Shown here: piece by piece, positions 1,063-19,203 of the stretch
How positions within the stretch are numbered: position 1 is the first letter of the stretch
How the letters are laid out: each line of letters opens with the position of its first letter
Virus genome (UHGV): UHGV-0124605
Direction: 5' to 3' (one strand)
DNA length: 19,203 nucleotides
Origin: a virus
Program-made: the position numbers and the translations under genes
Notes under the pieces: model-generated
Databases searched by the model: none
The model's input: only the letters and a program-made list of their open reading frames with translations
What the model was told of the DNA's origin: nothing

Positions 1063-1097
1063 TGCTCAACCTGAAATAACAACTAAGTGAGATGAAT

Positions 1098-1586
1098 ATG
1101 GCAGCACCAAAGGGCAACCGATTTTGGGAGGCCCGCAGTAGTCATGGGCGAAATCCTAAATTCGAATCGCCTGAGGCGCTGTGGGCTGCTTGTTGTGAAT
1201 ACTTCGAGTGGGTGGAAGCTAACCCGCTATGGGAGATGAAGGCGTTCTCGTATCAGGGTGAAGTGATACAAGAGCCTATCGCCAAGATGCGAGCGATGAC
1301 CATTACCGGCCTCACTCTGTTCATTGATGTGACGCTTGAAACATGGCGCACATATCGCCTGCGAGAAGATTTATCTGAAGTCGTTACGCGAGCAGAACAG
1401 GTCATCTACGACCAGAAATTCTCTGGCGCAGCCGCTGACCTTCTCAACGCTAACATCATCGCCCGTGATTTGGGCCTCAAAGAGCAGTCGCAAGTTGAAG
1501 ACGTGACACCTGATAAGGGAGATCGCGATAAGCGGCGCTCTCGTATCAAGGAGCTATTCAACCGTGGAACTGGACGCGATTCTTGA
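1098..1586 (+). CDS. 3: Terminase small subunit (P22 gp3-like, TerS)
   Basis: Translation from the second ATG ([32 protein letters not shown]...) matches P22 gp3 as recalled, 162 aa. The in-frame ATG at 1092 gives a 164 aa alternative. Contains a pac-like sequence and overlaps the TerL start. Confidence 0.92.
1365..1386 (+). other. Candidate pac (packaging initiation) site, P22-type, inside the TerS gene
   Basis: GAAGATTTATCTGAAGTCGTTA at 1365-1386 matches the 22-bp P22 pac site as I recall it, and lies within gene 3 as in P22. The match is from memory, not verified. Confidence 0.6.
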
Positions 1587-3063
1587 TAACTTGAGCGACG
1601 AAGAGCAAATCGAATTGCTCGAGCTACTCGAAGAAGAAGAGAACTACCGTAACACACACCTGCTATATGAATTTACGCCATACAGCAAACAGCGTGAGTT
1701 CATCGACGCCGGACATGACTATCCAGAGCGATGTTTTATGGCTGGTAACCAGCTTGGTAAGTCATTTACTGGTGCTGCTGAAGTCGCGTTTCACCTTACC
1801 GGGCGTTATCCGGGCACAAAAGGCTATCCTGCTGATGGTAAATATGGCGGTGAGTGGAAAGGTAAGCGTTTCTATGAGCCTGTTGTCTTCTGGATTGGCG
1901 GCGAGACAAACGAGACTGTAACCAAAACGACTCAACGCATCCTGTGCGGTCGTATCGAAGAGAATGATGAGCCTGGCTACGGTTCCATACCGAAAGAAGA
2001 CATCATTAGCTGGAAGAAGTCTCCTTTCTTTCCGAACCTTGTTGATCACCTTCTGGTTAAGCATCACACGGCTGATGGCGTTGAAGATGGCATTTCAATC
2101 TGCTACTTCAAACCATACTCGCAAGGCCGTGCTCGCTGGCAGGGTGACACAATCCACGGCGTGTGGTTTGACGAAGAGCCACCATACAGCATTTATGGCG
2201 AAGGTCTTACCCGTACCAACAAATACGGGCAATTCTCAATTCTGACGTTTACCCCTCTGATGGGGATGTCTGACGTTGTTACCAAGTTCCTGAAGAATCC
2301 CAGCAAGTCGCAGAAAGTGGTCAACATGACCATCTATGACGCTGAGCACTACACCGACGAGCAGAAAGAGCAAATCATCGCATCCTATCCTGAGCATGAG
2401 AGAGAGGCGCGTGCTCGCGGTATTCCTACGATGGGTAGCGGGCGAATCTTCCAGATACCGGAAGAGACGATTAAGTGTCAGCCGTTCGAGTGCCCTGATC
2501 ACTTTTACGTAATTGGCGGTATGGATTTCGGATGGGATCACCCGCAGGCGCAGGTTCAGCTTTGGTGGGATAAGGACGCAGACACAATCTACGTTTCACG
2601 CGTGTGGAAGGCGAAAGAAAAAACAGCCGTTCAGGCGTGGGGAGCCGTTAAATCTTGGGCGCATAAAGTGCCAACCGCATGGCCTCATGACGGAAACCAG
2701 CACGAGAAGGGCGGCGGTGAGCAGCTTAAAGGGCAGTACGCGGACGCTGGTTTTATGATGTTGCAGGAGCATGCGACATGGCCTGATGGCGGTAATGCTG
2801 TTGAGCCTGGCATCACTGAATTGCGCGACATGATGCTCGATGGACGCTTCAAAGTATTCAACACCTGTGAGCCATTCTTTGAGGAGTTCCGCCTCTATCA
2901 CCGTGATGAAAACGGGAAGATCGTCAAGCTTAACGATGACGTTCTCTCAGCCGTTCGCTATGCATACATGATGCGCCGCTTCGCAAAAATGATGCGCGAC
3001 ATCAAAAAACCAAAAGAGAAAAAGATACCAGCCCCAATCAGGCCCATCGCACGGAGAACTTAA
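1564..3063 (+). CDS. 2: Terminase large subunit (P22 gp2-like, TerL)
   Basis: 499 aa, same length as P22 gp2, with N-terminus [27 protein letters not shown] matching from memory. The start codon at 1564-1566 is GTG and overlaps the last 23 nt of TerS. Confidence 0.95.
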
Positions 3064-5229
3064 ATGGCCGACGAAAACAGACTCAATTCCATTCTGTGTA
3101 AGTTTGACGCAGACTGGATGGCGAGCGATGAAGCCAGAACCGAGGCGACAAATGACCTGTATTTTAGCCGAGTGTCGCAATGGGATGACTGGCTATCAAA
3201 CTACACGACCCTGCAATATCGCGGACAATTCGATGTTGTTCGCCCGGTGGTCAGGAAACTGGTCGCAGAGATGCGCCGGAACCCTATCGACGTTCTCTTC
3301 CGACCAAAAGACGGTGCTAATCCTGATGCAGCCGATGTGTTGATGGGGATGTATCGTACTGATATGCGCCATAACACGGCAAAAATTGCCGTTAACGTTG
3401 GCGTTCGTGAGCAGATAGAGTCAGGCGTTGGTGCATGGCGTCTGGTCACGCAGTACGAAGACAACGATCCAACAAGCAACAATCAGGTAATCCGACGCCT
3501 GCCAATCCATGAAGCCTGCTCACACGTCATATGGGACGCCAACAGCAAGCAGATGGATAAGAGCGACGCTAAGCACTGCACGGTGATTAACGCTTTGTCA
3601 CGCAATGGCTGGAAAGAGTTCGCAGAGGATTACGGCATTGATCCTGACACGCTGCCATCTTTCCAGAATCCGAACGATACATGGCTGTTTCCGTGGGTAT
3701 CGAATGATGTCGTCTACGTCGCTGAGTATTACGAGGTAGAAGAGAAGAAGGAGAAAGTCTTCATCTACCGCGACCCGCTGACAGGTGAGCCGGTCAGCTA
3801 TTTCCAGCAGGATATCAAAGACGTCATCGACGACCTGGCTAATCGTGGATTCATTAAGGTAGCAGAGCGTAAGGTCAAGCGTCGGCGTGTGTATAAGTCG
3901 ATCATCACCTGCACGCAGATACTGAAAGACCGCGAGAAGATAGCTGGAGAGCATATCCCAATCGTTCCTGTGTACGGCGAATGGTCATTCGCTGGTGACA
4001 AGGAGTGCTACGAGGGCGTGGTAAGGCTGACGAAAGACGGTCAACGCCTTCGTAACATGATCATGTCGTTCAACGCCGATATTGTTGCTCGTTCACCGAA
4101 GAAGAAACCGACCTTCTTCCCTGAGCAAATCGAAGGCTACGAATACATGTACGGTGGAAATGATGACTATCCGTACTATCTGCAGAACAGGACCGATGAA
4201 AACGGTAACGACCTGCCGATTGGTCCAATCTCCTACATGGAAAACCCTGAAGTGCCGCAAGCCAACGCTTACATGCTTGAGGCTGCCACCAACGCAGTGA
4301 AAGAAGTGGCTAGTCTTGGCGTGGATGCGCAGGCGGCAAATGGTCAGGTCGCTTTCGATACCGTCAATCAACTGAACATGCGGGCAGACCTTGAGACATA
4401 CGTGTTTCAGGATAACCTGGCTACCGCAATGCGACGTGATGGCGAGATTTATGCCTCAATGGTCAACGATATTTATGACGTTCCTCGTCATGTAACGCTG
4501 ACACTTGAAGATGGAAGCGAGAAAGACGTTCAACTCTACGCGCAAGTTGTAGATTACCAGTCCGGTAATGTGGTCACACTCAACGACATTCGCGGTCGCT
4601 ATGAGTGCTATACAGACGTTGGGCCATCCTTCCAGAGCATGAAGGAACAGAACCGCGCAGAGATTCAGGAATTGCTCACTAAGGTTCCGCAAGGTACTCC
4701 AGAGTTCCAGATGCTGATGCTGCAATACTTCACGCTGCTTGACGGTAAAGGCGTCGAGATGATGCGAGAGTACGCGAACAAGCAACTGGTGATGATGGGG
4801 CTTAAGAAACCAGAAACACCTGAAGAGATGGAGATGGTACAGCAGGCTCAACAGCAGCCGCAGCAGCCATCAGCAGAGCAAATTCAGGCGCAGGGTATCC
4901 TTCTGCAAGGTCAGGCTGAATTGCTCAAGGCAGAGAACCAACAGGCGCAGATTCAGGTTGAAGCTGCCAAGGTTGAAGCCCAAAACCAACTCAACGCCGC
5001 GAAGATTGCAGAAATCTTCAACAATATGGACCTCGACAAGCAGGCAGAACTGCGTGAGTACCTCAAGCTCGTAGGTCAATTCCAGCAACAGCGCAGCAAA
5101 GATGCTCGTGCTAACGCTGAGTTGCTTCTTAAAGATGCAGACCAGACTCATTCACAACGCATGGATTTCGCGAATCTTATGCGCCAAGTTCAAATCCCCT
5201 CCGGCGGAGTAGCCGAGACACCTCAATAA
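3064..5229 (+). CDS. 1: Portal protein (P22 gp1-like)
   Basis: 721 aa (P22 gp1 is about 725). Extensive recalled identity to P22 portal, e.g. RVSQWDDWL..., [16 protein letters not shown]..., [27 protein letters not shown]..., and a Q-rich C-terminal barrel region. ATG at 3064 directly follows the TerL TAA. Confidence 0.97.
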
Positions 5230-5242
5230 GAGAGAGTTAATC

Positions 5243-6154
5243 ATGAACCCAACCACCGACATTCAGACTTCTGAAGAATTAACCCTGCCCGGCAATCATG
5301 CAGCGGCATCTGCTGATGGCTTAGTTGTCGATAATGCCAACGACAACGCAGGTCAGGAAGAAGGCTTCGAGATTGTCCTGAAAGACGATGAGAAACCAAA
5401 ACAAGACCCGGCAACTAATGCTGAATTTGCCCGTCGCCGCATCGAACGCAAACGCCAGCGTGAGCTTGAGCAGCAGATGGAAGCGGTTAAGCGTGGAGAG
5501 TTGCCGGAGCACCTGCGGGTGAACCCTGAGTTACCAAAACAACCAGACCCTAACGATTATCTTTCCGAAGATGCACTGGCTAAGTACGACTATGACCATA
5601 GCCGCGCACTGGCTGCCTTCCAGCAGGCAAACAGTGAATGGCAGATCAAGGCTATGGACGCACGAAGCCAGGCTGTCGCCGAGCAGGGTCGCAAAACTCA
5701 GGAGTTCACCCAGCAATCAGCGCAATACGTCGAGGCAGCCCGTAAGCACTACGACGCAGCGGAAAAGCTCAATATCCCTGACTATCAGGAGAAAGAGGAC
5801 GCATTCATGCAACTGGTGCCGCCAGCAGTCGGTGCCGACATCATGCGCCTCTTCCCGGAGAAATCCGCTGCTCTCATGTATCACCTTGGTGCTAATCCTG
5901 AGAAAACACGCCAGTTGCTGGCGATGGACGGGCAATCCGCGCTGATTGAACTCACTCGACTGTCAGAACGTTTAACTCTCAAGCCTCGAGCCAAGCCTGT
6001 TTCAGAAGCCCCGTTACCTGATGAACCCATTCAGGGGCACGCTGTTGCTGCAAATATCTCTGCGATTGAAAAGCAGATGGAGGCGGCAGCAAGCAAAGGG
6101 GATGTAGAGACGTACCGCAAGCTCAAGGCGCAACTGAATAAAGGAATTCGATAA
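5243..6154 (+). CDS. 8: Scaffolding protein (P22 gp8-like)
   Basis: 303 aa, same length as P22 gp8. Recalled matches include [21 protein letters not shown] and the C-terminal coat-binding helix-turn-helix region [14 protein letters not shown]. Stop overlaps the coat ATG (TAATG). Confidence 0.93.
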
Positions 6155-7449
6155 TGGCATTAAATGAAGGTCAACTGGTCACGTATGCTCTGGATGAAAT
6201 CATCGAAACCGTCCAGAACCTGACGCCAATGGCGTCCAAAGTGACAAAATACACCCCTCCGGCAGAATCCATGCAACGTTCAAGCAACACCGTGTGGATG
6301 CCTGTTGAGCAGGAAGCGCCAACCCAGACTGGCTGGGATTTAACTGGCAGCGCAACCGGGATTCTGGAACTCTCCGTGAAATGCAACATGGGCGATCCGG
6401 ATAACGATTTCTTCGAGCTTCGTGCAGATGACCTGCGTGATGAGCGTTCTTACCGTCGCCGCATCCAGGCATCCGCCAAAAAACTGGCGAATAACATTGA
6501 GTCAGCAATTGCCAAACAGGCAACCGAAATGGGCTCACTTGTTGTTCACGATACCCGCGCAATTGGTCCATCTACTGGTCTGTCTGGATGGGATTTTGTT
6601 TCTGATGCAGAGCGCCTGATGTTCTCCCGTGAGCTAAACCGCGATATGGGCATCAGTTACTTCCTGAACCCAGACGATTACCGCAAAGCAGGCCGCAATC
6701 TGGTAGATGGTGACATCTTCGGTCGCGTTCCTGAAGAAGCGTATCGCAACGGTACTATTCAGCGTCAGATTGCTGGCTTTGATGAAATTCTTCGTTCACC
6801 GAAACTTCCGGCAGTTACCAAGTCAACCGCTACTGGTGTAACTGTTTCTGGTGCGCAGAAGTTTAAGCCGCAGGCATACACCCTTGATACCGATGGTAAC
6901 AAAGAGAACGTCGACAACCGTGTTGCAACGGTGACCGTATCCTCCACCACCGGATTTAAGCGCGGCGACAAAATAAGCTTCACTGGTGTGAAGTTCCTGT
7001 CTCAGATGGCGAAGAATGTGCTGACTGATGACGCGACTTTCTCAATCACCCGTGTGATCGATAGTACTCACATCGAAATCACGCCGAAGCCGATTGCGCT
7101 GGATGACGCGTCACTGACAAAAGAAGAGAAGGCTTACGCTAACGTAAACACCTCTCTTGCTGATACCACTCCGGTAAACGTTCTGAACGTGGCAACAACC
7201 ACCGCTAACGTGTTCTGGGCTGATGACTCAATCCGTCTGCTATCTCAGCCGATCCCGGTAACCCATGAACTGTTTGCTGGCATGAAAACGTCTTCCTTCA
7301 GCATTCCTGGTATTGGTGTTAACGGCATCTTCGCAACGCAGGGTGATATCAACACTCTGTCTGGTAAGTGCCGTATTGCTGTGTGGTATTCAGCATGTGC
7401 TGTACGACCAGAGGCAATTGGTGTTGGTCTGCCTAACCAGACTGCGTGA
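6154..7449 (+). CDS. 5: Major capsid (coat) protein (P22 gp5-like, HK97 fold)
   Basis: 431 aa (P22 gp5 is 430). MALNEGQ...[20 protein letters not shown]...RGDKISF.GVKFL.QMAKNVL...[12 protein letters not shown] matches P22 coat from memory. Confidence 0.97.
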
Positions 7450-7455
7450 TAACCA

Positions 7456-7480
7456 GAGGGAGCTTCGGCTCCCTTTTTTA
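7456..7480 (+). terminator. Rho-independent terminator-like hairpin just after the coat gene
   Basis: GGGAGC (7458-7463), loop TTCG, GCTCCC (7468-7473), then TTTTTT (7474-7479). A GC-rich perfect stem with a T-tract, 7 nt after the coat stop. Likely a partial terminator or RNA-stability element that raises coat/scaffold stoichiometry. Confidence 0.6.
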
Positions 7481-7493
7481 TCTGGAGACAAAC

Positions 7494-7724
7494 ATGACAC
7501 ACATGATCTTTCGTCATGGCGACATGAAGAAGTGGAAAGGCGTTGGCTACGACTTTGAAATCGTGAAAGCCGAAGAGATTCAGGAATATCTGGATGCTGG
7601 TTGGTTTGCACATCCAGATGACCTTCTTAAGGATGTTGCAGAGCCAGAGCCAGAAGAAAAACAGCGTAAAAAGCCTGGTCGAAAACCTAAGGCGGCAGCA
7701 GATGAACCTGACAACGAAGGGTGA
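7494..7724 (+). CDS. Hypothetical small charged protein (76 aa) between coat and gp4
   Basis: ATG at 7494 preceded by GGAG (7484-7487). The C-terminus is highly charged ([26 protein letters not shown]). Overlaps the gp4 start by 23 nt in another frame. No homolog recognised. Confidence 0.45.
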
Positions 7725-8202
7725 TTTAGTTCTTGCGGCATTACGTAAGCTCGGTGTGGCATCAAATGCCACGTTAACAGATGTCGAACCGCAGTCTATG
7801 GAAGACGGCGTCAACGACCTTGAAATGATGATGGCTGAATGGCTTGGCGGTGATGCGTCACCTGGTATCAACGTTGGCTACATTTTTGCTGATGCAGATG
7901 TTGCTCCGGATCCGGGCGATGAGCACGGTTTATCAAATAACGCTATCAATGCCGTCATTTTCAACCTTGCCTGCCGCATTGCTCCAGATTATGCGCTGGA
8001 AGCGTCTGCAAAACTTATAACCACTGCCAGATACGGGAAAGAGCGACTCGTCAAACTGTCTGCAATGGACAGAGCAAAAGCCGCTAAATGTAAGTCCGGT
8101 TATCCAAACCGTATGCCTGTTGGTAGCGGTAACCAGTTGGCGAAGTGGAATGGTTGGAATTACTTCCACCGAAAGGAACCTTGCGATAACGGGAGCGAAT
8201 AA
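7702..8202 (+). CDS. 4: Head-tail adaptor / head completion protein (P22 gp4-like)
   Basis: 166 aa from the ATG at 7702, the same length as P22 gp4. [28 protein letters not shown]...DLE.MMAEW and [16 protein letters not shown] match from memory. The ORF-track upstream extension to 7594 is probably not translated. Confidence 0.9.
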
Positions 8203-9620
8203 TGCCGATTCAGCAACTTCCGCTTATGAAAGGTGTCGGCAAAGACTTCCGAAACGCCGACTATATCGACTATCTGCCAGTGAATATGTTGGCTACACCC
8301 AAAGAAATCCTTAACAGCAGCGGATATCTTCGCTCATTCCCGGGCATTGCCAAACGTTCTGATGTGAATGGTGTATCTCGAGGCGTCGAGTACAACATGG
8401 CGCAGAGTGCTGTTTATCGCGTGTGTGGTGGCAAGCTGTACAAAGGAGAAAGTGAAGTCGGTGACGTTGCCGGAAGTGGTCGCGTATCAATGGCGCATGG
8501 TCGGACATCACAGGCGGTAGGGGTTAACGGGAAACTGGTCGAGTATCGCTATGATGGCACGGTTAAAACCGTCTCAAACTGGCCTACAGACAGCGGATTC
8601 ACTCAGTATGAGTTAGGTTCAGTTCGCGACATTACGCGCTTGCGTGGGCGTTATGCGTGGTCAAAAGACGGTACTGATTCATGGTTCATCACTGACCTTG
8701 AAGACGAATCTCATCCTGACCGTTACAGCGCACAATATCGTGCCGAGTCTCAGCCTGACGGAATCATCGGCATCGGAACATGGCGAGACTTCATCGTCTG
8801 CTTTGGTTCATCGACGATTGAATATTTCTCCCTGACTGGTGCAACCACCGTTGGTGCTGCTTTGTATGTCGCACAGCCATCACTGATGGTGCAGAAAGGC
8901 ATTGCCGGGACTTACTGCAAAACGCCATTCGCTGATTCGTATGCGTTCATCAGCAATCCGGCAACAGGTGCGCCGTCTGTGTACATCATCGGTTCCGGTC
9001 AGGTATCACCAATCGCCAGCGCGAGCATTGAGAAAATACTACGCTCCTACACTGCTGATGAACTGGCTGATGGCGTGATGGAATCGTTGCGGTTTGATGC
9101 TCATGAGTTGCTGATTATCCACCTTCCGCGCCATGTTCTCGTGTACGACGCATCTTCAAGCGCTAATGGTCCGCAATGGTGTGTGCTGAAAACAGGCCTG
9201 TATGACGATGTGTACCGCGCTATCGACTTCATTTACGAAGGCAATCAGATAACGTGCGGAGATAAGCTGGAATCGGTTACCGGCAAATTGCAGTTCGATA
9301 TCAGCAGCCAGTACGACAAGCAGCAGGAACACCTGCTGTTTACTCCGTTGTTCAAAGCGGATAACGCCAGATGCTTCGATCTGGAGGTGGAATCATCCAC
9401 TGGCGTAGCTCAGTACGCCGATCGACTGTTCCTCTCTGCAACCACTGACGGAATCAATTACGGGCGTGAGCAGATGATTGAGCAGAATGAACCGTTCGTT
9501 TACGACAAACGCGTTTTGTGGAAGAAAGTAGGGCGCATCAGGAAAAACATTGGTTTCAAATTGCGCGTTATCACGAAGTCACCTGTAACTCTGTCTGGCT
9601 GCCAGATAAGGATTGAGTAA
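8202..9620 (+). CDS. 10: Tail accessory / packaged-DNA stabilization protein (P22 gp10-like)
   Basis: 472 aa, the same length as P22 gp10, in the syntenic position between gp4 and the tail needle. Start overlaps the gp4 stop (TAATG). Confidence 0.88.
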
Positions 9621-10573
9621 TGGCTGATTCGAATCTCAATGAGCCAGTAATCATCCAGGCTACGCGGCTCGATACATCAGTCCTTCCACGCAATATCTTC
9701 TCTCAGTCGTATCTGCTTTACGTTATTGCACAGGGTACTGATGTTGGTAATGTGGCTAACAAGGCCAACGAAGCAGGGAAGGGGGCTTATGATGCACAGG
9801 TGAAGAATGATGAGCAGGATGTCACCCTTGCAGACCATGAATCCAGAATTGCTGCTGCTGAAGCAACTCTCGTCAATCATGAACATAGAATCGCAGCAGC
9901 GGAAAGCACTCTTGCAGATCATGAAACAAGGATTACGGCTGCCGAAACAGAGCTGGCTGATCACGAGACGCGAATTGCTGCCAATGAATCTGAGTTAGCA
10001 AACCATGATGCGCGAATAACTCAGAATACAACCGATATCAACGCACTTGATACCAGGCTCACAGCGGCAGAGGGAAGTATTTCGACGCTACAAAGCACAG
10101 TTGGTGATCACTCAACAAGAATATCTGCGCTTGAGTATGCCACCACGCGCAAGAAATCAGAGGTTGTTTACTCAGGAGTATCGGTAACCATTCCAACAAC
10201 GCCGACCAACCTTGTTAGCCTGCTGAAAACGCTCACGCCGTCATCCGGGACGTTGGCACCATTCTTCGATACTGATAACAACAAGATGGTTGTGTTCAAC
10301 GAGAATAAAACGCTGTTCTTCAAGTTGTCTATTGTCGGGACGTGGCCCAGCGGAACCGCCAACAGATCAATGCAACTAACCTTTTCCGGCTCTGTTCCTG
10401 ACACACTTGTGAGCAGTCGTAATGCGGCGACAACAACCGATAACATCCTGTTAGCTACGTTCTTCAGCGTGGATAAAGACGGCTTTCTTGCCACAAATGG
10501 CAGTACGTTAACCATTCAGTCAAATGGTGCGGCGTTTACTGCCACAACCATCAAGATAATCGCGGAGCAGTAA
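9620..10573 (+). CDS. 26: Tail needle / cell-envelope-penetrating plug protein (P22 gp26-like) with extended coiled coil and distinct C-terminal domain
   Basis: N-terminus [43 protein letters not shown]... matches the gp26 N-terminal tail-hub-binding region from memory. It is followed by 14-residue tandem repeats and a non-P22 C-terminal region. 317 aa versus about 233 in P22. Confidence 0.9.
9827..10036 (+). repeat. In-frame tandem 42-bp (14-codon) repeats encoding the needle coiled coil
   Basis: Five clear units: [14 protein letters not shown] / [14 protein letters not shown] / [14 protein letters not shown] / [14 protein letters not shown] / [14 protein letters not shown]. Degenerate units continue to about 10140. 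Confidence 0.75.
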
Positions 10574-11028
10574 TGATTCAGTTCAAACCAACGCGAAACA
10601 TCGACCTGATCGAAGCAGTCGGAAATCACCATGACATTATTGCCGGAAGCAACAACGGTGATGGATACGACTACAAGCCTGAATGCCGTTACTTTGAAGT
10701 GAACGTGCACGGGCAGTTCGGCGGCATTGTTTACTATCATGAGATTCAGCCTCTGACATTCGATTGCCACGCCATGTACCTGCCAGAGGTTCGTGGATTC
10801 AGCAAGGAAATCGGGCTGGCGTTCTGGCGATACATTCTGACTAACACCACCGTTCAGTGCGTCACATCGTTCGCTGCACGCAAATTCCGCCACGGGCAGA
10901 TGTACTGCGCAATGATTGGCCTTAATCGTGTAGGAACCATCAAGAAATACTTCAAAGGCGTGGATGACGTGACGTTTTACAGCGCTACACGCGAAGAACT
11001 AATCGACTTCCTGAATCACGGGAGATAG
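10573..11028 (+). CDS. 14: Ejection/assembly-associated protein at the P22 gp14 position
   Basis: 151 aa ORF whose ATG overlaps the needle stop (TAATG), located between gene 26 and gene 7 as gp14 is in P22. Called by synteny only; I do not recall the P22 gp14 sequence. Confidence 0.65.
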   Translation: MIQFKPTRNIDLIEAVGNHHDIIAGSNNGDGYDYKPECRYFEVNVHGQFGGIVYYHEIQPLTFDCHAMYLPEVRGFSKEIGLAFWRYILTNTTVQCVTSFAARKFRHGQMYCAMIGLNRVGTIKKYFKGVDDVTFYSATREELIDFLNHGR

Positions 11029-11030
11029 CC

Positions 11031-11723
11031 ATGTTATATGCATTTAAGCTGGGCAGAAAACTGCGCGGCGAGGAACCTTATTGCCCTGAAAAAGGCGGGA
11101 AAGGTGGCAGTTCTGATAAAAGCGCAAAGTATGCAGCAGAAGCTCAGAAGTATGCCGCAGACCTGCAAAATCAGCAGTGGCAGACGATCATGAAAAACCT
11201 TGCTCCGTTCACGCCGCTTGCGGAGCAGTATGTTAACCAGCTTCAGAACCTTTCCAGTTTAGAAGGTCAGGGGCAGGCACTTAATCAGTATTACAACTCT
11301 CAGCAGTATAAAGACCTTGCAGGTCAGGCTCGTTACCAGAGTCTTGCTGCTGCGGAGGCAACGGGAGGACTTGGTTCGACAGCCACAAGCAATCAACTGG
11401 CTACGATCGCGCCGACTCTCGGTCAGTCTTGGTTATCAAACCAGATGAGCAACTACAACAATCTGGCAAACATTGGCCTTGGTGCGCTGCAAGGTCAGGC
11501 GAACGCCGGGCAGACATACGCCAACAACATGAGCAGCATTGCACAGCAAAGTGCTGCACTTGCCGCTGCTAATGCCAATAAACCATCAAGTCTTCAGACA
11601 GCAATTAGTGGCGGAACGTCTGGTGCGATTGCCGGTGCAGGTCTTGCCAGCCTTTTGGGAACATCAACACCTTGGGGCGCTGGCATTGGTGCTGGTATCG
11701 GATTGCTTGGCTCGTTGTTTTAA
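11031..11723 (+). CDS. 7: Ejection (E) protein gp7-like
   Basis: 230 aa (P22 gp7 is 229). MLYAF.LGRKLRGEEP.PEKGGKGGSSD.SAKYAAEAQKYAADLQNQQ and the Gly/Ala-rich C-terminus ...GLLGSLF match from memory. RBS GGGAGA upstream. Confidence 0.9.
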   Translation: MLYAFKLGRKLRGEEPYCPEKGGKGGSSDKSAKYAAEAQKYAADLQNQQWQTIMKNLAPFTPLAEQYVNQLQNLSSLEGQGQALNQYYNSQQYKDLAGQARYQSLAAAEATGGLGSTATSNQLATIAPTLGQSWLSNQMSNYNNLANIGLGALQGQANAGQTYANNMSSIAQQSAALAAANANKPSSLQTAISGGTSGAIAGAGLASLLGTSTPWGAGIGAGIGLLGSLF

Positions 11724-11732
11724 GGGGTAATC

Positions 11733-13028
11733 ATGGCTACTTGGCAAGGATCAAATGGCGGATTGTTGGCTGGTATCGGCGGCGTCAACTCAAACGCTCC
11801 GAGCGTAAATGACATCGGCAATACGCTTCAGCTTATCAGGCAGAACAATGATATTGAGCGTTCAGGCGCTAACAATGTTGGGCTGACTGCTTTGCAAGGC
11901 CTTTCAGGTATTGCGGGGGTGTTTCAGCTGGAAAAGCAGGCTCAGCGGCAGAAAGAATTTCAGCAGGCGTACGCTAATGCTTATGCGTCTGGTGATCGCG
12001 GTGCTTTGCGTCAGTTGGCTACTCAATATCCAGACCAGATTGAATCCGTTCGTAAAGGCATGGGATTCATTGATGAAGACCAGCGGAATTCTATCGGCAC
12101 CTTAGCGGCTGGCGCACGCCTTGCGTCATCGTCTCCAGAAGCAATGCAATCATGGCTGCAAAACAACGCCAAGGAACTGACTCGCGTCGGTGTTGACCCT
12201 AACAGCGTTGCTCAGATGTATCAGCAGAATCCTTCAGGATTTGGTGAGTTTGTTGATCACCTTGGAATGGCTGCTCTTGGCCCGATTGACTACTTCAATG
12301 TTCAGGACAAGATGGCTGGTCGTGAAATTGACCGAGGCAGGCTGGCAGAGACAATCCGCAGCAATCAGGCTGGAGAAGCACTAACAGCGCGTGGTCAGGA
12401 CATCCAGATACGTGGACAGAACATCAGCGCACAGAATGCTGCTCTTTCCCGCGAAATACAAAGAGCAGAATTACAAGAAAAGGCTCTGGACAGACAGATA
12501 GCCAGAGAAAGCAATCAGTTAAAGCTTGAAGAGCTAAAACAGAAACAGGCAGATGTTCGGCAAAAGGCTGACATAGCCCGCGCTGACAGGCAGGCCGCCG
12601 CTCAGGGTGCAGTTGATACGTTCAGCACCGCGCTTGATTCTCTCAACGAGATAGAGCAAAGCCCCGGCCTTTCAAAAGCAGTAGGAATTCGCTCAGCGTT
12701 TCCGACAGTTCCTGGCTCTGATGCGGCTAACTTTGAAGCAAGGCTCGACACCTTTAAAGCTCAAACATTCCTTCCTATGGTGCAGTCCCTGAAGGGTATG
12801 GGCGCTCTTTCAGATGCTGAGGGTAAAAAATTATCCGATGCGGTTGGTGCCCTAAGCCCCAAAATGAGTGAAAAGGCTTTTCGTGACTCTATCGGAAAGA
12901 TTAGAAATCAGCTTGAAAGCAAGTTGAGCACTGTTAAAAAACAGTTTGATTATCAGGAGCCAGTACAGAATATGCCAGGGCAACAATCTACTACTGGCAG
13001 TAACTTTTCTTCACTATGGGGTGATTAA
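11733..13028 (+). CDS. 20: Ejection (E) protein gp20-like
   Basis: 431 aa in the syntenic position after gp7, with low-complexity Gln/Ala-rich and coiled-coil content typical of P22-like internal ejection proteins. Stop overlaps the next start. Confidence 0.8.
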   Translation: MATWQGSNGGLLAGIGGVNSNAPSVNDIGNTLQLIRQNNDIERSGANNVGLTALQGLSGIAGVFQLEKQAQRQKEFQQAYANAYASGDRGALRQLATQYPDQIESVRKGMGFIDEDQRNSIGTLAAGARLASSSPEAMQSWLQNNAKELTRVGVDPNSVAQMYQQNPSGFGEFVDHLGMAALGPIDYFNVQDKMAGREIDRGRLAETIRSNQAGEALTARGQDIQIRGQNISAQNAALSREIQRAELQEKALDRQIARESNQLKLEELKQKQADVRQKADIARADRQAAAQGAVDTFSTALDSLNEIEQSPGLSKAVGIRSAFPTVPGSDAANFEARLDTFKAQTFLPMVQSLKGMGALSDAEGKKLSDAVGALSPKMSEKAFRDSIGKIRNQLESKLSTVKKQFDYQEPVQNMPGQQSTTGSNFSSLWGD

Positions 13029-15025
13029 TGGCTAAAGCATGGAAAGATGTTATCGCCTCTCCACAGTATCAGGCGTTAGCACCAGAACAAAAAGCGCAGG
13101 CTCAGGAGCAATACTTCAATGAAGTCGTGGCCCCGCAAGCCGGAGAAAATGCAGAGCAGGCTAAGCAAGCTTTCTATGCTGCCTATCCATTGCCATCTGT
13201 GCAGCCAGTGGAGACACAACAACCAGTAGCACAGCAACAACCACAGCAAAGTGGATTTATGTCTGATCTTGGTGAAGCAGTAAAAGAGACTGGTCGCGGA
13301 CTGGTGCAGGCTGGCGTGAACGTGGCAAACATACCTGCATCAGTTGCCGATGCTGTAACAAGCGCGGCGGCTTGGGCTGGCGGTAAACTCGGTATTGGCG
13401 ATGGTACATATCAACCAGCACCACGAGTAACAACGCAGGGATTAGAGCAGGACTTTGGCCTTCAGCAAGGTGCGCTGACTCCACAAACGACAGAGGGAAG
13501 GGTATTTGCTGAAGCATTGCCTTACCTCACTCCTGCTGGCGTTGAGAGAGCGGCGGTACAGGCACCAACACTTGCTGGTCGAATTGCTCAGGGGGCAACT
13601 CGCCTTCTAGCAGAAAACGCAGTTGGATCACTTGCTGCAAATAGTGCGAAAGATGATGCGGAAGCACTCGCCACCGATTTAGGCGTTGGTGTACTTGCTG
13701 GCGGTGCTATTAACGCTGCCGGACGTGGATTAGGTGCTGCTTATCGTGGCGTTCGTGGTGCTATCGCGCCAGAAGCGCAGCAGGCTATCAGATTTGCAGA
13801 GCGTGAAGGAGTTCCTCTGCACACCACAGACCTGTTACAACCAACTTCCCGCGTCGGAAAAATGGCGCAGACTACAGCAGAAAATATCCCTCTGGCTGGC
13901 ACAAGCGGAATGAGAGCAACGCAACAGGAAGCTAGAAGCCAGTTGGTGCAGAGATTTGCTGATAAATTCGGTGAGTATGATCCAGCGGTTGTTATTGACA
14001 GCCTTAAAGCGAAAACATCAGGAATTCGTCGTGCTGCAGGGAATCGTCTTGAGCAGGTTCAGAATGCAATGGCGGGAGTCAATATCCAGCCTGCGCGAGC
14101 AATTCAGCAGATTGATACTGAGATATCTAATCTGCAGAAGCTTGGTAAGGTAGCTGATAACGAGACAATTTCAAAACTTCAGTCATATCGTGATGAGCTT
14201 GTTCGCAATGCTGGTCCTGATGGTCCGGTAAATCTGGATTTGAAGCAATTAAGCGACCTGCGCAGCCAGTTCAGAATGGACGTGAAGGGTGAGCGACCAG
14301 TGTTACCAAACCGTTCCGATGCTGCCATTCAGCGCGTTTACAAGGCAATGACTGACGATATCAATGGTGCCATTGGTCAGAATCTTGGCAACGATACTCT
14401 CCGTAAATATCAGCAGGCCAATGCCGTCTACGCTGACGAAGCGGCGAAACTAAAGAATACCAGGCTGAAGAATGTTCTCATGAAAGGCGACCTGACGCCG
14501 GAAGTCGTCAACAACATGCTATTCAGCAAGAACAAATCGGAAATTAAGACGCTGTATAACTCAGTTGGTCGTGTTGGCAGGGCGCAAATGCGCAATGGCA
14601 TCATTGGAAAGGCGATGGAGAAATCTGGCGGATCCCCTGACCAGTTCCTTCGGCAGCTTAACATCCTGCAAAACCAGACTGGCATCACATTTAAGGGGCA
14701 GGACGCTGCTTATCTGAAAGGATTAAAAAACTACCTGCAATCCACGCAGCAGGCTGCAAAAGCGGCAGTAACAACACCCACAGGGCAGCAAACTATCCCG
14801 TTCATTATTGGGTATGGGACGGCAATGAACCCGGCGACAACTGGCGCAGCAGTAAGCTACGGACTTCTTACTCGCGCCTATGAGAGCGAGCCATTCAGAA
14901 ATGCAATGCTCCGAATGGCAAACACCCCACGCGGATCAACAGCGTTTGAGAAAGCCATGCAGCAGGCACAAAAGGCAATTAACGCTATGACGCAGGGGGC
15001 TAAGTCTGATGCGTTGTCAGAATAG
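13028..15025 (+). CDS. 16: Ejection (E) protein gp16-like
   Basis: 665 aa in the syntenic position, the last gene of the late structural block before the accessory region. Ala/Gly/Gln-rich as in gp16-type proteins. Confidence 0.8.
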   Translation: MAKAWKDVIASPQYQALAPEQKAQAQEQYFNEVVAPQAGENAEQAKQAFYAAYPLPSVQPVETQQPVAQQQPQQSGFMSDLGEAVKETGRGLVQAGVNVANIPASVADAVTSAAAWAGGKLGIGDGTYQPAPRVTTQGLEQDFGLQQGALTPQTTEGRVFAEALPYLTPAGVERAAVQAPTLAGRIAQGATRLLAENAVGSLAANSAKDDAEALATDLGVGVLAGGAINAAGRGLGAAYRGVRGAIAPEAQQAIRFAEREGVPLHTTDLLQPTSRVGKMAQTTAENIPLAGTSGMRATQQEARSQLVQRFADKFGEYDPAVVIDSLKAKTSGIRRAAGNRLEQVQNAMAGVNIQPARAIQQIDTEISNLQKLGKVADNETISKLQSYRDELVRNAGPDGPVNLDLKQLSDLRSQFRMDVKGERPVLPNRSDAAIQRVYKAMTDDINGAIGQNLGNDTLRKYQQANAVYADEAAKLKNTRLKNVLMKGDLTPEVVNNMLFSKNKSEIKTLYNSVGRVGRAQMRNGIIGKAMEKSGGSPDQFLRQLNILQNQTGITFKGQDAAYLKGLKNYLQSTQQAAKAAVTTPTGQQTIPFIIGYGTAMNPATTGAAVSYGLLTRAYESEPFRNAMLRMANTPRGSTAFEKAMQQAQKAINAMTQGAKSDALSE

Positions 15026-15115
15026 CTTTTCAAATACCAGGAACGTGCAAAAACCAAATATGTAGAACGCGAGGTTTATCGTATCCCTCTGCATAGGCGA
15101 TACCTTTGCTGATTG

Positions 15116-15601
15116 TTATCTGATGTTACTGCTACTGTTGCATGTGACTGTATTTCCAAACCCTGAATTGCAGTTTGTGTAAGTGTCAACTCGTGTTGGA
15201 TAGGGTTGAGTTATAACAGGCTGTCTCGCTTTTTGCTCGATCGCTTGCATTGTGTTTACAGCCTGATAATTCAATAAAGCCTGCTGGAATGCTTGGCTTT
15301 GCGCTATTTGTTGGGCTTGTTCTTGGCTTTGTAGTTGAACATAAAGATTCTGAAGCTCAAGTCTTGCCTGCGCGTCACTTATCTTGCCATCATCGACACC
15401 TTGCCCGAGCATCTTCGCAGCAAGGACATATAACTTAGGTGTTGGTGCTGATGCCATGCGTGAGTCGTTCTTCACGCTAGCATCAAGGCAATTAGCCATA
15501 TCGCTAAGCTTTGGATAGCGTTGTTCGCAATTTGCCTGATAGTCGCTAACCTTTGCACACCCTGCCAGCAGAAGCGGGATAATTAACAGTGATTTTTTCA
15601 T
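15116..15601 (-). CDS. Predicted lipoprotein (161 aa), function unknown; candidate superinfection-exclusion or lysogenic-conversion protein
   Basis: On the - strand, strong RBS AAGGAGAG 7 nt upstream of the ATG at 15601-15599. Signal peptide MKKSLLIIPLLLAGC with lipobox LAG|C. Mature part has two Cys pairs and a Gln-rich helical segment. The ORF-track start at 15631 would place the RBS inside the coding sequence, so I prefer 15601. Confidence 0.7.
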   Translation of the reverse strand: MKKSLLIIPLLLAGCAKVSDYQANCEQRYPKLSDMANCLDASVKNDSRMASAPTPKLYVLAAKMLGQGVDDGKISDAQARLELQNLYVQLQSQEQAQQIAQSQAFQQALLNYQAVNTMQAIEQKARQPVITQPYPTRVDTYTNCNSGFGNTVTCNSSSNIR

Positions 15602-15735
15602 ATGATTAACTCTCCTTATCTTTGCCATCATGGCACTGTTGGGTGTAAATGAGTTATTAACTCAATCGACAATATCTTCACGAAAATACTTTTTATTATT
15701 AAGATCTTTCTGATTCTAACAAAACGTAAAGTAAT

Positions 15736-16155
15736 ATGAAGAGGATTATCGGCGTCGTTGCTGGCGCTATATTGTTATCTGGGTGCGCAACTATTGTTGG
15801 TGACGAAACACAGCTTGTGCAAGTGAACAGCAATCCTTCCGGCGCGAGCTTTAAGGTAAAAGACGAATCAGGCGTGATTGTTGCGCAAGGTAAGACCCCG
15901 CAAGGAGTAACTCTTGCCAAGTCAGATGGTAGTTATTTTGGCAAAAAGAGCTACCAGATCACTATGGAGAAGGATGGGTACGAACCAGTTACCCTGCCAA
16001 TCAAAGCCAATGCTAATGGTTGGTATATTGGTGGAAACCTTGTGTTTGGTGGGTTAATTGGTTGGCTTGCTGTAGATCCATTTAATGGCGGGATGTATAC
16101 CTTGAAGCCTAAAGAGGCAAATGCATCCCTTATACCGTCCACAAAGCAAGACTAG
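15736..16155 (+). CDS. Predicted lipoprotein (139 aa) with PEGA-like beta domain and Gly-rich hydrophobic C-terminal segment, function unknown
   Basis: Signal peptide MKRIIGVVAGAILLSGC with lipobox LSG|C. NSNPSGASFKV...GKTPQGVTL...GYEPV resembles a PEGA-type domain. C-terminal WYIGGNLVFGGLIGWLAVDPFNGGMY is glycine-zipper-like. Followed by a terminator hairpin. Confidence 0.7.
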   Translation: MKRIIGVVAGAILLSGCATIVGDETQLVQVNSNPSGASFKVKDESGVIVAQGKTPQGVTLAKSDGSYFGKKSYQITMEKDGYEPVTLPIKANANGWYIGGNLVFGGLIGWLAVDPFNGGMYTLKPKEANASLIPSTKQD

Positions 16156-16162
16156 TAAATGG

Positions 16163-16186
16163 AACCCACCATCAGGTGGGTTTTTT
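16163..16186 (+). terminator. Rho-independent terminator hairpin between the convergent lipoprotein and mnt genes
   Basis: AACCCACC (16163-16170), loop ATCA, GGTGGGTT (16175-16182), then TTTT. The downstream arm overlaps the last codons and stop of mnt on the opposite strand. Confidence 0.6.
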
Positions 16187-16423
16187 GTACAAATCCTTCA
16201 GCGTATCAAACACCATCTTCTTAACAAGTTCAGACTGCTCATCAGCGATACGTTCCGCATCGTCTCGATAGCCTGAAATTTTGGATGGCTTTGATACAGC
16301 ATCAGTCACTATCTGAACTAATTCTGAATTAAGAGAGCGGCCATTGGATTTGGCTCGCTGTTTTAGTTTTTCCTTTAATTCGTAAGGTAGCCGCAGATTA
16401 AATTGCGGGTCATCTCTTCCCAT
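16172..16423 (-). CDS. mnt: Mnt repressor (ribbon-helix-helix, Arc/MetJ family)
   Basis: 83 aa: MGRDDPQFNLRLPYELKEKLKQRAKSNGRSLNSELVQIVTDAVSKPS...GYRDDAERIADEQSELVKKMVFDTLKDLYKKPT, near-identical to P22 Mnt as recalled, same length. Confidence 0.93.
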   Translation of the reverse strand: MGRDDPQFNLRLPYELKEKLKQRAKSNGRSLNSELVQIVTDAVSKPSKISGYRDDAERIADEQSELVKKMVFDTLKDLYKKPT

Positions 16424-16455
16424 TCTTGATGCCTCGCTCTTGTGAGTGGATCGGC

Positions 16456-16484
16456 ATCTTATTATCTGCTGGTTGCATCCTCAA
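16456..16484 (-). promoter_or_regulatory. Candidate sigma70 promoter for mnt (Pmnt)
   Basis: On the - strand, TTGAGG (complement of 16479-16484), 17-nt spacer, TAAGAT (complement of 16456-16461), about 30 nt upstream of the mnt ATG. Consensus-like only; not verified. Confidence 0.3.
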
Positions 16485-16487
16485 TAA

Positions 16488-16500
16488 GACCACGGTGGTC
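16488..16500. promoter_or_regulatory. Mnt-operator-like palindrome GACCAC-G-GTGGTC
   Basis: Perfect 6-bp inverted arms around a central G. The core CCACGGTGG is the same as I recall for the P22 mnt operator. Lies between mnt and the tailspike start. Confidence 0.55.
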
Positions 16501-16557
16501 GTATTTTTGTTTAATAATGAATCACTGCGGCCATTCCTTGTATCTGGAGCAAATTAA

Positions 16558-19203
16558 ATGACAGACATTACAGCCAATGTTGTAGTGAGCATGCCTTCGC
16601 AACTCTTTACTATGGCCCGCTCTTTTAAAGCCGTAGCTAATGGCAAAATTTATATCGGTAAAATTGACACTGACCCAGTAAATCCTGAAAACCAGATTCA
16701 GGTTTATGTGGAGAATGAAGACGGTTCTCACGTTCCTGTTTCGCAACCTATAATCATTAACGCTGCTGGATATCCGGTATATAACGGACAGATTGCCAAG
16801 TTCGTAACTGTGCAAGGCCATTCTATGGCTGTTTATGATGCGTATGGTGCACAGCAGTTCTATTTTCCTAATGTGCTGAAGTATGACCCGGATCAGTTTA
16901 AACAAAAAGTATTATCAAATGATATGCTAAATATGTCTCCTCTTTATTTTGGAGCTAAGGGGGATGGGATTAGCGATGATACTGAAGCATTTGTCGCGTT
17001 GGAAATGGATATAAAAAATAGGGTTATTGATTTAAGTGGAAGAGCATTTTTTGTTACTAAAAGTTTTATTGAAAATAGCTATATAAATGGTTCTTTTATT
17101 CGTGATGGCAGTAAACGAATTGCGATTGGTGATCTTAAATTAAGAGATAAAAGAGAGCCATTGATATTTTCCGGAATGCCAAAAGTATATAACACCAGAC
17201 ACACGTTGCGCAGAACTGAAGGTGCGGGTGGTTTATATGCGGTCATTCAGGGGTGTTGTTATGATGAAATTAACGACAAGATTTTTACTTTATCATCTAC
17301 CACAGCATACGGTTATTGCATTAATGCCTTTGACGTGACGAATTCTGGTGAACTAGGAAGATACGACAGAACCCGTTCTACTGAACTTGGGCATCAGGGG
17401 CTTGGATTGCATCATAATCCTGATGGTACTGTCGTGCTGTGGACATCGAAGCCTTATGGAACCGATGCCGCCAATCAATGTATTTCGATGGAAAATATAT
17501 TGAGTTACACAGGGACAACCAACGGAGTATCTGAAGGTTTTATCACCTGGAAGTTGTTCCCCTATGATGGAATGAGCGCAAGCTCTACTCCAACTGTATC
17601 AAGTTGTGAAAACTATCTCCTTGCCAAGAAAATTTCATCGGATGGAATTACCTGCACGGTTCGTGTTTTCGACATAGTCAGCATGTGGAATAACAGAGCT
17701 CATAAAACTGATTATAGTGATGATTATTTAGTTGAGTTTAGCTATCAAAAACCATCACAAGAAGCATTTACCCAATCAATTGCTTGCGATGGGGCATACA
17801 TTTACATACTTGAGTCACATACGTATGTTGGCATGACTAATTATATTTACGTATTTGACTTAACAGGCAGGTTTATTGAGCGAGTAGATATTTCAACTGT
17901 TGGTGATGATGAAGCAAAATCTGACAGTACAGGAACTCCTGTTTATAAAGAGCCTGAGTCCCTAACAGTAATTAGAACGGAGAGTGGGTATGTTTTAACG
18001 CTGGGGATATGCACATATAAAGGAGTTGCTGAGAACGGGAAAAATGTATATCTGTTTGATATAGGCAGGTCTGGTTCGGTAGTGCAAAGCAAAGCAAGCC
18101 GTTCTGTATCCAGTAATACTGGTCTTCATAGTTCTGGCTCCCCGGAGTTCAAATATGGAGTAAGGGAGTACAATGATACTTTTCACTGGACAGTTTGGCC
18201 AACAAGAAAGGGTATTCAAACTAACCGGGATAACCCTATATTGTTTCTTGATGGCGGAATTACTGGTGGAATGCAGTTAGCTTCAAACGGCACGGAAGGG
18301 ATGAGCAACTCATGGGTTTCCCGGCATCAGTCAGACACCGCAGAAGGACCAAGAGCAATAATGTATAAGTCTCGCTCTGGTGTTGTATCAACTGATAATT
18401 TTGGAGCTCTGCAGACAGGGGATGTATTGGGTACTCATGTATGGGCCGGTGATACAGGTAGCAAGGCTGTGCAATGCGCACGCATTAAATGCGTCACAAG
18501 AGGTAATCCTTCCGGAGACAATATCCCGGTTGCTTTCTACTTTGGAACCATGGGTGAGAGTGACGGCTTGCGTGACAGATGGGTATTAACAGAATTAGGT
18601 CATTTTCGACCATCAGGTTCAAATATTTATGATATTGGTACACAGTCGAATACTGTCAGAAACCTGTATATAAATAATAGCCCCATTGTAACCAGCGACA
18701 GAAATCACAAGCAGGATGAAGCTTCATTATCTGATGCAGAACTACGGGTTGGAATGGCTATTTACCCGCTGATAAAAAAATTCAGAATGAAGGATGCTGT
18801 AAAAGAAAAAGGCTTGTCAGCGCGTGAGCATATCGGTGTAATTGCGCAAGATATACAATCCATCTTTGAATCTGAGGGGCTTGATGCATTTTCTTATGGG
18901 GTTCTTTGCTATGAAGAGTGGGATGATGAGTATGAGAAAGTCTATGCAACAAGAAATGTGACCAGAAAAATTTTAATTGATGAAGAGTCTGGTCAGTATG
19001 ATGAAATCACAGAGGAAGAAGAGTATGAAACTGGTGAAGTAAGGTTAATTATGGAATCAGGAAGAAAATTATCAGTGCGCTATGACGAGTTAATGTTTCT
19101 GGCAATGAGCGCACTATATCATCACCATGAGCAGGATATTGCCAATATCACATCAAAGATTAATAATCTGGAAAAATTATTAAAGTTAACACTAAATGGT
19201 TGA
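16558..19203 (+). CDS. 9: Tailspike protein, mosaic: P22 gp9-type head-binding domain, uncharacterised central receptor-binding/depolymerase-like domain, endosialidase-type C-terminal intramolecular chaperone (peptidase S74-like)
   Basis: 881 aa. Residues 1-113 match the P22 tailspike head-binding domain from memory ([11 protein letters not shown]...[33 protein letters not shown]...QGHSMA.YDA.G.Q....NVLKYDPDQ). The centre begins with a [13 protein letters not shown] motif. The C-terminus ([11 protein letters not shown]...HIGVIAQDI...[10 protein letters not shown]...) resembles the K1F endosialidase chaperone domain. TGA stop is at the window end. Confidence 0.93.

Follow-up and report, generated by a model that had tools for sequence, protein, structure and literature searches.

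A probable mosaic tailspike of a P22-like Escherichia coli prophage, with a five-bladed propeller between endosialidase-like modules

The tailspike gene and its recombination junction

The UHGV virus genome UHGV-0124605, a stretch of 19,203 nucleotides that we analysed as a whole and call the window, ends with a tailspike gene. The gene is one open reading frame at 16558-19203 on the plus strand and encodes a protein of 881 amino acids. As read from the sequence, a ribosome-binding site, GGAG (16546-16549, plus strand), lies 8 nucleotides before the ATG at 16558, and the stop codon TGA (19201-19203, plus strand) is the final three bases of the window. From its N terminus, the protein consists of a head-binding domain, a linker, an endosialidase-like cap, a five-bladed platform propeller, a stalk, and an intramolecular chaperone of the Peptidase_S74 type (S74). 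We propose, with a probability of roughly 70%, that the gene encodes the mosaic tailspike of a P22-like (Lederbergvirus-type) prophage of E. coli and that the spike is built from exchangeable modules. The exact protein is already present in NCBI and ENA, where it has generic names ("tail fiber domain-containing protein" or "phage tailspike protein"). Its 90%-identity cluster has 269 member sequences, and a search of NCBIfam gave no match.

The head-binding (virion attachment) domain comprises residues 1-113 (16558-16896, plus strand) and has the sequence YDPDQ at its end (residues 109-113). It matches the full Head_binding profile of Pfam (PF09008) with 223.9 bits, against a cutoff of 24 (E = 4.5e-67), and 111 of its 113 residues are identical in the spike of CUS-3, a prophage of E. 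coli K1. Residues 1-120 give a near residue-for-residue alignment with Sf6 gp14 (7sg7, E = 1e-65), and in a search of PDB sequences, P22 gp9 aligns over residues 1-115 only. These alignments bear out the first-pass annotation of this DNA, which was made from the sequence alone and had called the first ~113 residues P22 gp9-like. Given the near-identity to solved proteins, residues 1-113 would dock the spike trimer on the tail hub, as in P22, Sf6, and CUS-3.

At the DNA level, the head-binding domain is the sole part of the gene in common with other P22-like phages. Megablast aligned the gene with 31 phage records and over 1100 records of E. coli, and the alignments run out at nucleotides 339-361 of the gene (about 16896-16918 of the window), so the similarity does stop just past YDPDQ, as had been annotated. 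Of 5426 complete E. coli genomes, just 4 had the full tailspike gene. Residues 114-126 (16897-16935, plus strand) form the linker and contain the recombination junction: this is where the megablast matches end, and the structural model described below has a confidence score (pLDDT, short for predicted local distance difference test) of less than 50.

Base composition also changes near the junction. The structural genes (1092-15025) have a balanced GC content, as expected from the first-pass annotation: it is 0.505 overall and 0.505 +/- 0.023 in 300-nucleotide windows, with a minimum of 0.43. The GC content is 0.298 at 16990-17160 and 0.32-0.33 across 16850-17300, or about 8 standard deviations under the structural-gene mean. 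The cap is the lowest-GC part of the gene (about 0.30-0.35), and past this trough the GC content rises, to 0.405 in the propeller, 0.448 in the stalk, and 0.375 in the chaperone. On the other hand, it falls to 0.43 already at about 15000, and the head-binding segment itself is at 0.428. The composition break is real but stepped, and it is strongest over the first ~300 nucleotides of the foreign part. The AT-rich stretch that had been pointed out is there, but it is not set off by one clean step at about 16900. Neither a uniform GC profile across the gene nor a beta-helix like that of P22 gp9 was found. The low-GC, receptor-binding part of the gene would have been acquired by recombination at the YDPDQ junction.

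Cap, propeller, stalk, and chaperone

The endosialidase-like N-terminal cap covers residues ~127-210 (16936-17187, plus strand). At residues 130-142 it contains a motif of the type FGAxGDGxxDDT, which had already been noticed at the opening of the central domain; in Pfam, this motif opens both Pectate_lyase_3-like and End_N_terminal domains. Several relatives of the protein exceed the cutoff for End_N_terminal (PF12218), with 27.1-33.9 bits. The profile of the family matches residues 2-53 of endoNF, the solved endosialidase relative from phage K1F (1v0e, E = 4e-14), and also matches phi92 (4hiz). The endosialidase of CUS-3 aligns over residues 1-181 and again over residues 677-872, with no similarity between them.

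Residues ~211-520 (17188-18117, plus strand) form a five-bladed beta-propeller that carries the residues conserved in the family and is presumably the receptor-binding module. In an AlphaFold2 model of residues 116-712, a small alpha/beta cap (pLDDT 74-85 for residues ~126-175) is followed by 20 beta-strands that make up five blades of four strands each, and the N-terminal strand joins the last blade to close the ring (pLDDT 85-93). When we compared the model to the PDB with Foldseek, the top matches were the receptor-binding proteins (RBPs) of the Staphylococcus phages phi11, 80alpha, P68, and NF5 (E = 2.5e-14 to 2e-11). The best match among predicted viral structures was the neck appendage of Bacillus phage GA-1 (E = 2e-19), and the closest folds from outside phages were YjiK and glutaminyl cyclase. 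To our knowledge, the five-bladed platform propeller has been solved so far only in the RBPs of Staphylococcus phages.

Because the family profiles match the sequences of solved RBPs (5efv, 6v8i, 6iab, and 9m7x) at E values of 1e-8 to 2e-12, the propeller appears to be related to the Staphylococcus RBP platform by homology, beyond a shared fold. The motifs vvQ..D, GH, QGiacDG, and EpEG are common to the family and to the Staphylococcus phage RBPs. Also, the homologues P0013 and P0022-P0026 exceed the cutoff for Phage_RBD_prop (PF21311), with 24.3-47.4 bits.

When 5.8 billion proteins were searched with a word index, only 17 relatives of residues 116-712 came up, some of them 55-80% identical. 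An exhaustive search with HMMER, across 1.84 billion cluster representatives, yielded 211 clusters related to residues 116-580. Judging by these searches, the middle domain is uncommon yet a real family. Most relatives of the middle part end in an S74 (or G2) chaperone. The middle part is also found behind different virion adaptors, such as Tail_spike_N (PF18668) and the T7 fibre domain (PF03906), and the central domain is joined to at least three kinds of virion adaptor. The occurrence of the same low-GC middle behind other adaptors agrees with the earlier suggestion of a horizontally acquired module.

The first-pass annotation had associated the opening motif with pectate-lyase-fold depolymerases and with the catalytic regions of endosialidases. 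If the central domain were a beta-helix depolymerase with the pectate-lyase fold, or a genuine endosialidase catalytic domain, then the motif at residues 130-142 would fit, as it starts both types of domain, and so would the weak match to End_N_terminal. Relatives of the protein also match Pect-lyase_RHGA_epim weakly over ~22 residues, and the cap, stalk, and chaperone are all endosialidase-like. However, a Pfam scan of the tailspike gave no match to any beta-helix family, and none to the endosialidase propeller End_beta_propel (PF12217), even at E <= 1. The similarity to CUS-3 stops at residue ~181 and returns only at residue 677, and the alignment with P22 gp9 is confined to residues 1-115. 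Structure prediction, which had been suggested as a check, gave a five-bladed propeller instead of a beta-helix, and the structures that the model matches best are RBP platforms. We consider a beta-helix or a catalytic endosialidase domain to be extremely improbable. The label of endosialidase-type does hold for the scaffold (cap, stalk, and chaperone); it does not hold for the head, where the six-bladed sialidase propeller is absent and a five-bladed one stands in its place. As for the depolymerase activity, this was an assumption rather than a finding, and the related Staphylococcus RBPs are not reported to be enzymes (PMC4901313, PMC6795507).

The stalk (residues 521-712; 18118-18693, plus strand) is presumably an intertwined trimeric beta-structure that extends up to the cleavage site. 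In this region, residues 564-800 match a phage tail fibre (7y5s), residues 643-791 match the L-shaped fibre of T5 (4uw8), and relatives weakly match End_tail_spike (PF12219).

Residues 713-881 (18694-19200, plus strand) are the S74 chaperone. Peptidase_S74 (PF13884) matches residues 713-774 with 32.9 bits, against a cutoff of 22, and several solved chaperones match by sequence: 6eu4 (E = 5.6e-23), the phi29-type 3gud (E = 5e-15), that of endoNF (3gw6, E = 4e-13), and also 4uw8. The alignment with 3gud begins exactly at residue 713. The sequence TSDRNHK, with Ser713 (codon at 18694-18696, plus strand) and Lys718 (codon at 18709-18711, plus strand), aligns with TSDGTLK of CUS-3 at equal spacing, and these two residues are the predicted catalytic dyad. 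In endoNF, the role of the Ser/Lys dyad is established: the trimer folds and the chaperone is then released. The match above the cutoff and the dyad support the annotation of an endosialidase-type chaperone at the C terminus. By analogy, residues 713-881 would nucleate the trimerisation of the stalk and then cleave themselves off at Ser713, which would leave a mature chain of 78.4 kDa (residues 1-712) and a fragment of 19.6 kDa. The mature head would resemble that of an endosialidase, with a cap, three propellers around a three-fold axis, and a stalk.

Several observations weigh against the mosaic that we propose. The protein's own match to End_N_terminal (residues 133-180, E = 0.029, 14.5 bits) is weak and under the cutoff of 26.3, and its match to Phage_RBD_prop (residues 229-471, E = 0.01, 15.9 bits) is under the cutoff of 23.7. 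The AlphaFold2 model is of a monomer and was built from only 13 sequences, and it is poor and unreliable at residues ~518-616 (pLDDT 28-40), as would be expected for a stalk that folds only as an obligate trimer. Finally, the prophage is a remnant in 2 of the 4 complete genomes (strain C and GMF054).

These remnants raise the question of whether the gene could be a relic that is decaying within cryptic prophages and no longer yields a working spike. The prophages of strain C and GMF054 are truncated: there is an IS911 insertion, head genes are missing, and the integrase is partial. In contrast, the window holds a complete late operon, from the small terminase to the tailspike, and the open reading frame is intact, as are every domain signature and the Ser/Lys dyad; the size of the 90% cluster argues in the same direction. 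Furthermore, when we compared the spike gene (16558-19203) with other loci (including L006, L007, L009, and L010), two variants were 7 and 10 nucleotides apart from it, and all of these differences (7 of 7 and 10 of 10) were synonymous, so the protein was identical. This pattern points to purifying selection on the spike gene. We think it quite unlikely that the gene is a relic.

Target recognition and the linked glycosyltransferase

Across 46 members of the family, with a mean identity of 16%, few residues are invariant or nearly so. The near-invariant ones are Q231, G278-H279-Q280-G281, W295, S348, R369, Q406, D411, E465, and E467. According to the model, Q231, H279/Q280, S348, Q406, and E465/E467 would lie mostly at the start or the end of the innermost strand of blades 1-5, and the conserved polar residues should ring one opening of the central channel. 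Five-bladed propellers usually bind their ligands at the opening of the central channel. The same motifs are found in Gp45 of phi11 and in the P68 fibre (AVMQSFWVD / GGHG / MQGITYDA / QEAEGL). For the phi11/P68 platform, it has been proposed that wall teichoic acid places its N-acetylglucosamine (GlcNAc) in a central or lateral cavity, and the platform domain is not reported to be catalytic (PMC4901313, PMC6795507). Because these motifs are shared with platforms that have a proposed GlcNAc cavity and no reported catalysis, we take the propeller to be a glycan-binding element that sets the host range. The pocket of conserved residues would bind a sugar residue of an E. coli surface glycan, and the propeller would be the host-recognition element of the phage, with six spikes that have three sites each.

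The pocket probably binds without cleavage, but it is a substantial possibility that it is also catalytic. The placement of the pocket derives from the topology of the strands and not from inspected coordinates. All of the P22-like tailspikes that we know to have been characterised are enzymes, which speaks against a spike that only binds. The propeller might then be a receptor-destroying enzyme (a glycosidase, lyase, esterase, or phosphodiesterase) whose active site is formed from Glu465/Glu467, Asp411, His279, and Arg369; it would digest O-antigen, capsule, or another exopolysaccharide and so let the short tail reach the outer membrane. The siaK1 spike of CUS-3 is annotated with experimental endosialidase activity, glycosidases often have the propeller fold, and the invariant positions include acidic residues, His, and Arg even at the low identity of this family. 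However, the arrangement of the conserved residues (Gln in blades 1 and 4, His/Gln in blade 2, Ser in blade 3, and Glu-x-Glu in blade 5) is unlike the Asp/Asp/Glu triad that we know from GH43/62 or GH32/68 (GH is short for glycoside hydrolase), and YjiK and glutaminyl cyclase, the closest folds outside phages, are not glycosidases. The same conserved residues are present in the phi11/P68 platforms, which have been described only as binders (PMC4901313, PMC6795507). Surveys do list n-bladed propellers among the folds of phage depolymerases (PMC11326577, PMC12491483), but one of them calls the role of the propeller fold in phages unclear (PMC12491483). PHROG 8280, which matches residues 1-415, is labelled "colanic acid degradation"; this label is an unverified annotation and partly a match to the head-binding domain, we traced no experiment behind it in the literature searched, and we did not rely on it. 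Overall, an enzymatic propeller is entirely conceivable, if short of probable.

We also considered assigning the propeller to a glycoside hydrolase family. We rejected this because the five-bladed GH families were only second-tier structural matches and their triads do not fit, and we keep it as a possibility.

The spike's neighbour beyond the end of the window also bears on the receptor. In every locus with the spike, a convergent gene for a GT2 glycosyltransferase lies 47 nucleotides past the spike's stop codon, between the spike and the end of the prophage (among these loci are L005:8693-10013, L007:8693-10093, L002:10693-12299, and L001:22696-24020, all on the minus strand). Its GC content of 0.34 is similar to that of the spike's middle part. 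The spike and the GT2 gene are found in exactly the same 4 of the 5426 complete E. coli genomes, and near-identical spike genes are found in P22-like prophages whose upstream genes (for ejection proteins and in the immI region) differ widely. Both observations imply that the spike and the GT2 gene move as a cassette.

The GT2 gene beside the window's type of spike has a (GCCA)n tract in the 5' part of its coding sequence, which is translated as ASQP repeats. The tract has 10, 21, 30, 47, or 70 copies in five loci that are otherwise at least 99% identical, and three short-read contigs break within it. Only with 21 or 30 copies (2 of 5), which are divisible by three, do the N-terminal 52 codons share a reading frame with the catalytic domain. 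It looks as if GT2 is phase-variable, as length variation of this kind is a hallmark of slipped-strand phase variation. The GT2 variant of CUVM3 and CPww7 (88.8% identical) is without the tract and abuts an IS3 element. In CUVM3 (NZ_CP116970.1), two places match the propeller region of the spike, and one of these is L012:11015-13390. GT2 had no DNA match in the phage collection and no specific name in NCBIfam. We found no report of the GT2 repeat locus in the literature searched, which is not proof of novelty.

The receptor-binding part of the spike would thus travel as a cassette with GT2, and GT2 probably alters the receptor in lysogens. The linkage suggests that the spike's receptor is a glycan that the lysogen can modify reversibly. 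A more specific proposal is that the spike and GT2 form one mobile "recognise-and-disguise" cassette, in which a lectin-type (non-depolymerising) or mechanistically new propeller head, on a podovirus of Gram-negative bacteria, recognises a glycan that is not tied to a single O-serogroup; GT2, turned on and off through its (GCCA)n tract, would modify that same glycan reversibly in lysogens. We offer this as a tentative idea that is rather unlikely to be right.

The annotation that the host polysaccharide cannot be deduced from the sequence still stands. The host is E. coli. Strain C, which is from cow's milk, has an O7 O-antigen cluster, so we considered O7 as a shared O-type of the hosts. The O7 wzx flippase gene is present in only 1 of the 4 complete genomes with the spike (95 + 4 - 98 = 1 overlap), and we rejected O7 as the shared type. 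These counts are also weak evidence against a spike that is strictly specific for O7.

Tailspike heads determine which bacteria a phage or a tailocin attacks, so having the correct fold can guide both the prediction of host range and engineering. If the spike binds without cutting, or if it has a new catalytic site, short-tailed phages would have more means than are now known of coping with the sugar coat of a Gram-negative bacterium. The linked, repeat-switched GT2 would be a testable case in E. coli of a prophage that reversibly alters the surface of its host. We see the tailspike as a well-supported annotation of fairly ordinary module swapping rather than as a discovery, and as of moderate interest for phage receptor biology; the GT2 gene beyond the end of the window is the most novel lead.

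The late region upstream and related spikes

The window holds a complete late region upstream of the spike. According to PHROG and Pfam annotations, it encodes both terminase subunits (small and large), the portal, the scaffold, the coat, adaptor proteins, a knobbed tail needle, three ejection proteins, and an Arc/Mnt-type protein. The tailspike is the last gene of the late region, after the genes for the ejection proteins and the immI-type Arc/Mnt gene, and annotated relatives have the same order. Two public E. coli contigs (L005 and L008) match the final 8646 nucleotides of the window without a difference.

The tail needle protein (9620-10573) has a C-terminal "knob" (PHROG 1030; Pfam Phage_tail_NK in the identical contig), which is of the Sf6/HK620 type and not the knobless P22 type. 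Directly after the last ejection gene, a block of lower GC content (0.43) begins and extends across 15026-16557. It contains the Arc/Mnt-type gene (16172-16423, minus strand) and two other open reading frames, both without an assigned function. The first (15116-15631, minus strand) belongs to PHROG 6067. The second (15736-16155, plus strand) belongs to PHROG 6823, has a weak match to PEGA, and is named "peptidase associated/transthyretin-like" in RefSeq. In contrast to strain C and CUS-3, the block does not contain an ant gene. Between the Arc/Mnt-type gene and the spike, about 50 nucleotides upstream of the start of the spike gene, there is a terminator-like hairpin, GACCACGGTGGTC, followed by a T-run (16488-16510).

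The spike has the head-binding domain and the genome position of P22 gp9, Sf6 gp14, and HK620 gp9, and, like them, it would furnish the six spikes on the tail of a P22-like virion. Beyond residues ~115-120 there is no likeness: those proteins have a right-handed beta-helix endoglycosidase and a C-terminal trimerisation domain, with no released chaperone.

The propeller's solved relatives are the Staphylococcus RBPs (phi11 Gp45, 5EFV; 80alpha gp61, 6V8I; P68 fibre, 6IAB; NF5 Gp17, 9M7X), which are ~10-12% identical to it. They are built with a coiled-coil stem and "tower" domains, lack an S74 chaperone, and sit on the baseplates of siphoviruses or on a podovirus of Gram-positive bacteria. Their ligand is the GlcNAc of wall teichoic acid, a polymer that is absent from E. 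coli. In P22-like coliphages, the five-bladed platform propeller appears to be used as well, and here it is mounted on an endosialidase-style scaffold of cap, stalk, and chaperone.

Several phages have related spikes of the propeller type. The tailspike of vB_EcoP-683R2, a cultured Lederbergvirus (URC09351.1), has the same head-binding domain and a propeller with 26% identity and the same motifs, so the architecture is not unique among P22-like phages; a Pfam scan of that protein gave no S74 domain. The spike of vB_EcoP-683R2 is followed by a convergent gene (L004:4012-4548) for an SGNH-type "lysophospholipase L1-like esterase", which may modify a surface glycan. The tailspike of Escherichia phage Pollock has both the cap and the propeller in common with ours, at 25.8% identity, and the tailspike of Escherichia phage Gally and the neck appendage of GA-1 are also related. 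All four are far below 35% identity. In the literature searched, we found no published activity for any of these four spikes and nothing specific on coliphages, P22-like or not, whose tailspikes have a five-bladed propeller; DepoCatalog and a paper on Klebsiella prophages do not treat the five-bladed fold.

Another close relation is to siaK1 of CUS-3. Both spikes have the P22-type head-binding domain and, at the C terminus, an S74 chaperone with the cleavage motif TSDxxxK. With siaK1 and endoNF, our spike also shares the layout of cap, propeller, and stalk, and its cap, which starts with the motif GAxGDGxxDDT, appears to be of the End_N_terminal type as theirs is. Both spike genes lie at the end of their prophage. 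In CUS-3, the gene that follows is neuO, a glycan-modifying gene controlled by heptanucleotide repeats, and GT2 would be its counterpart here. The propellers differ: the six-bladed sialidase propeller (PF12217) of CUS-3 is replaced here by a five-bladed one from another family, and unlike in CUS-3, polysialic acid is surely not the substrate. The neighbouring genes differ as well, as the neighbour is a GT2 glycosyltransferase with a 4-nucleotide repeat here and an acetyltransferase with a 7-nucleotide repeat in CUS-3. If the spike and GT2 do form a recognise-and-disguise cassette, E. coli would have, besides neuO of CUS-3, a second contingency locus that is carried by a prophage.

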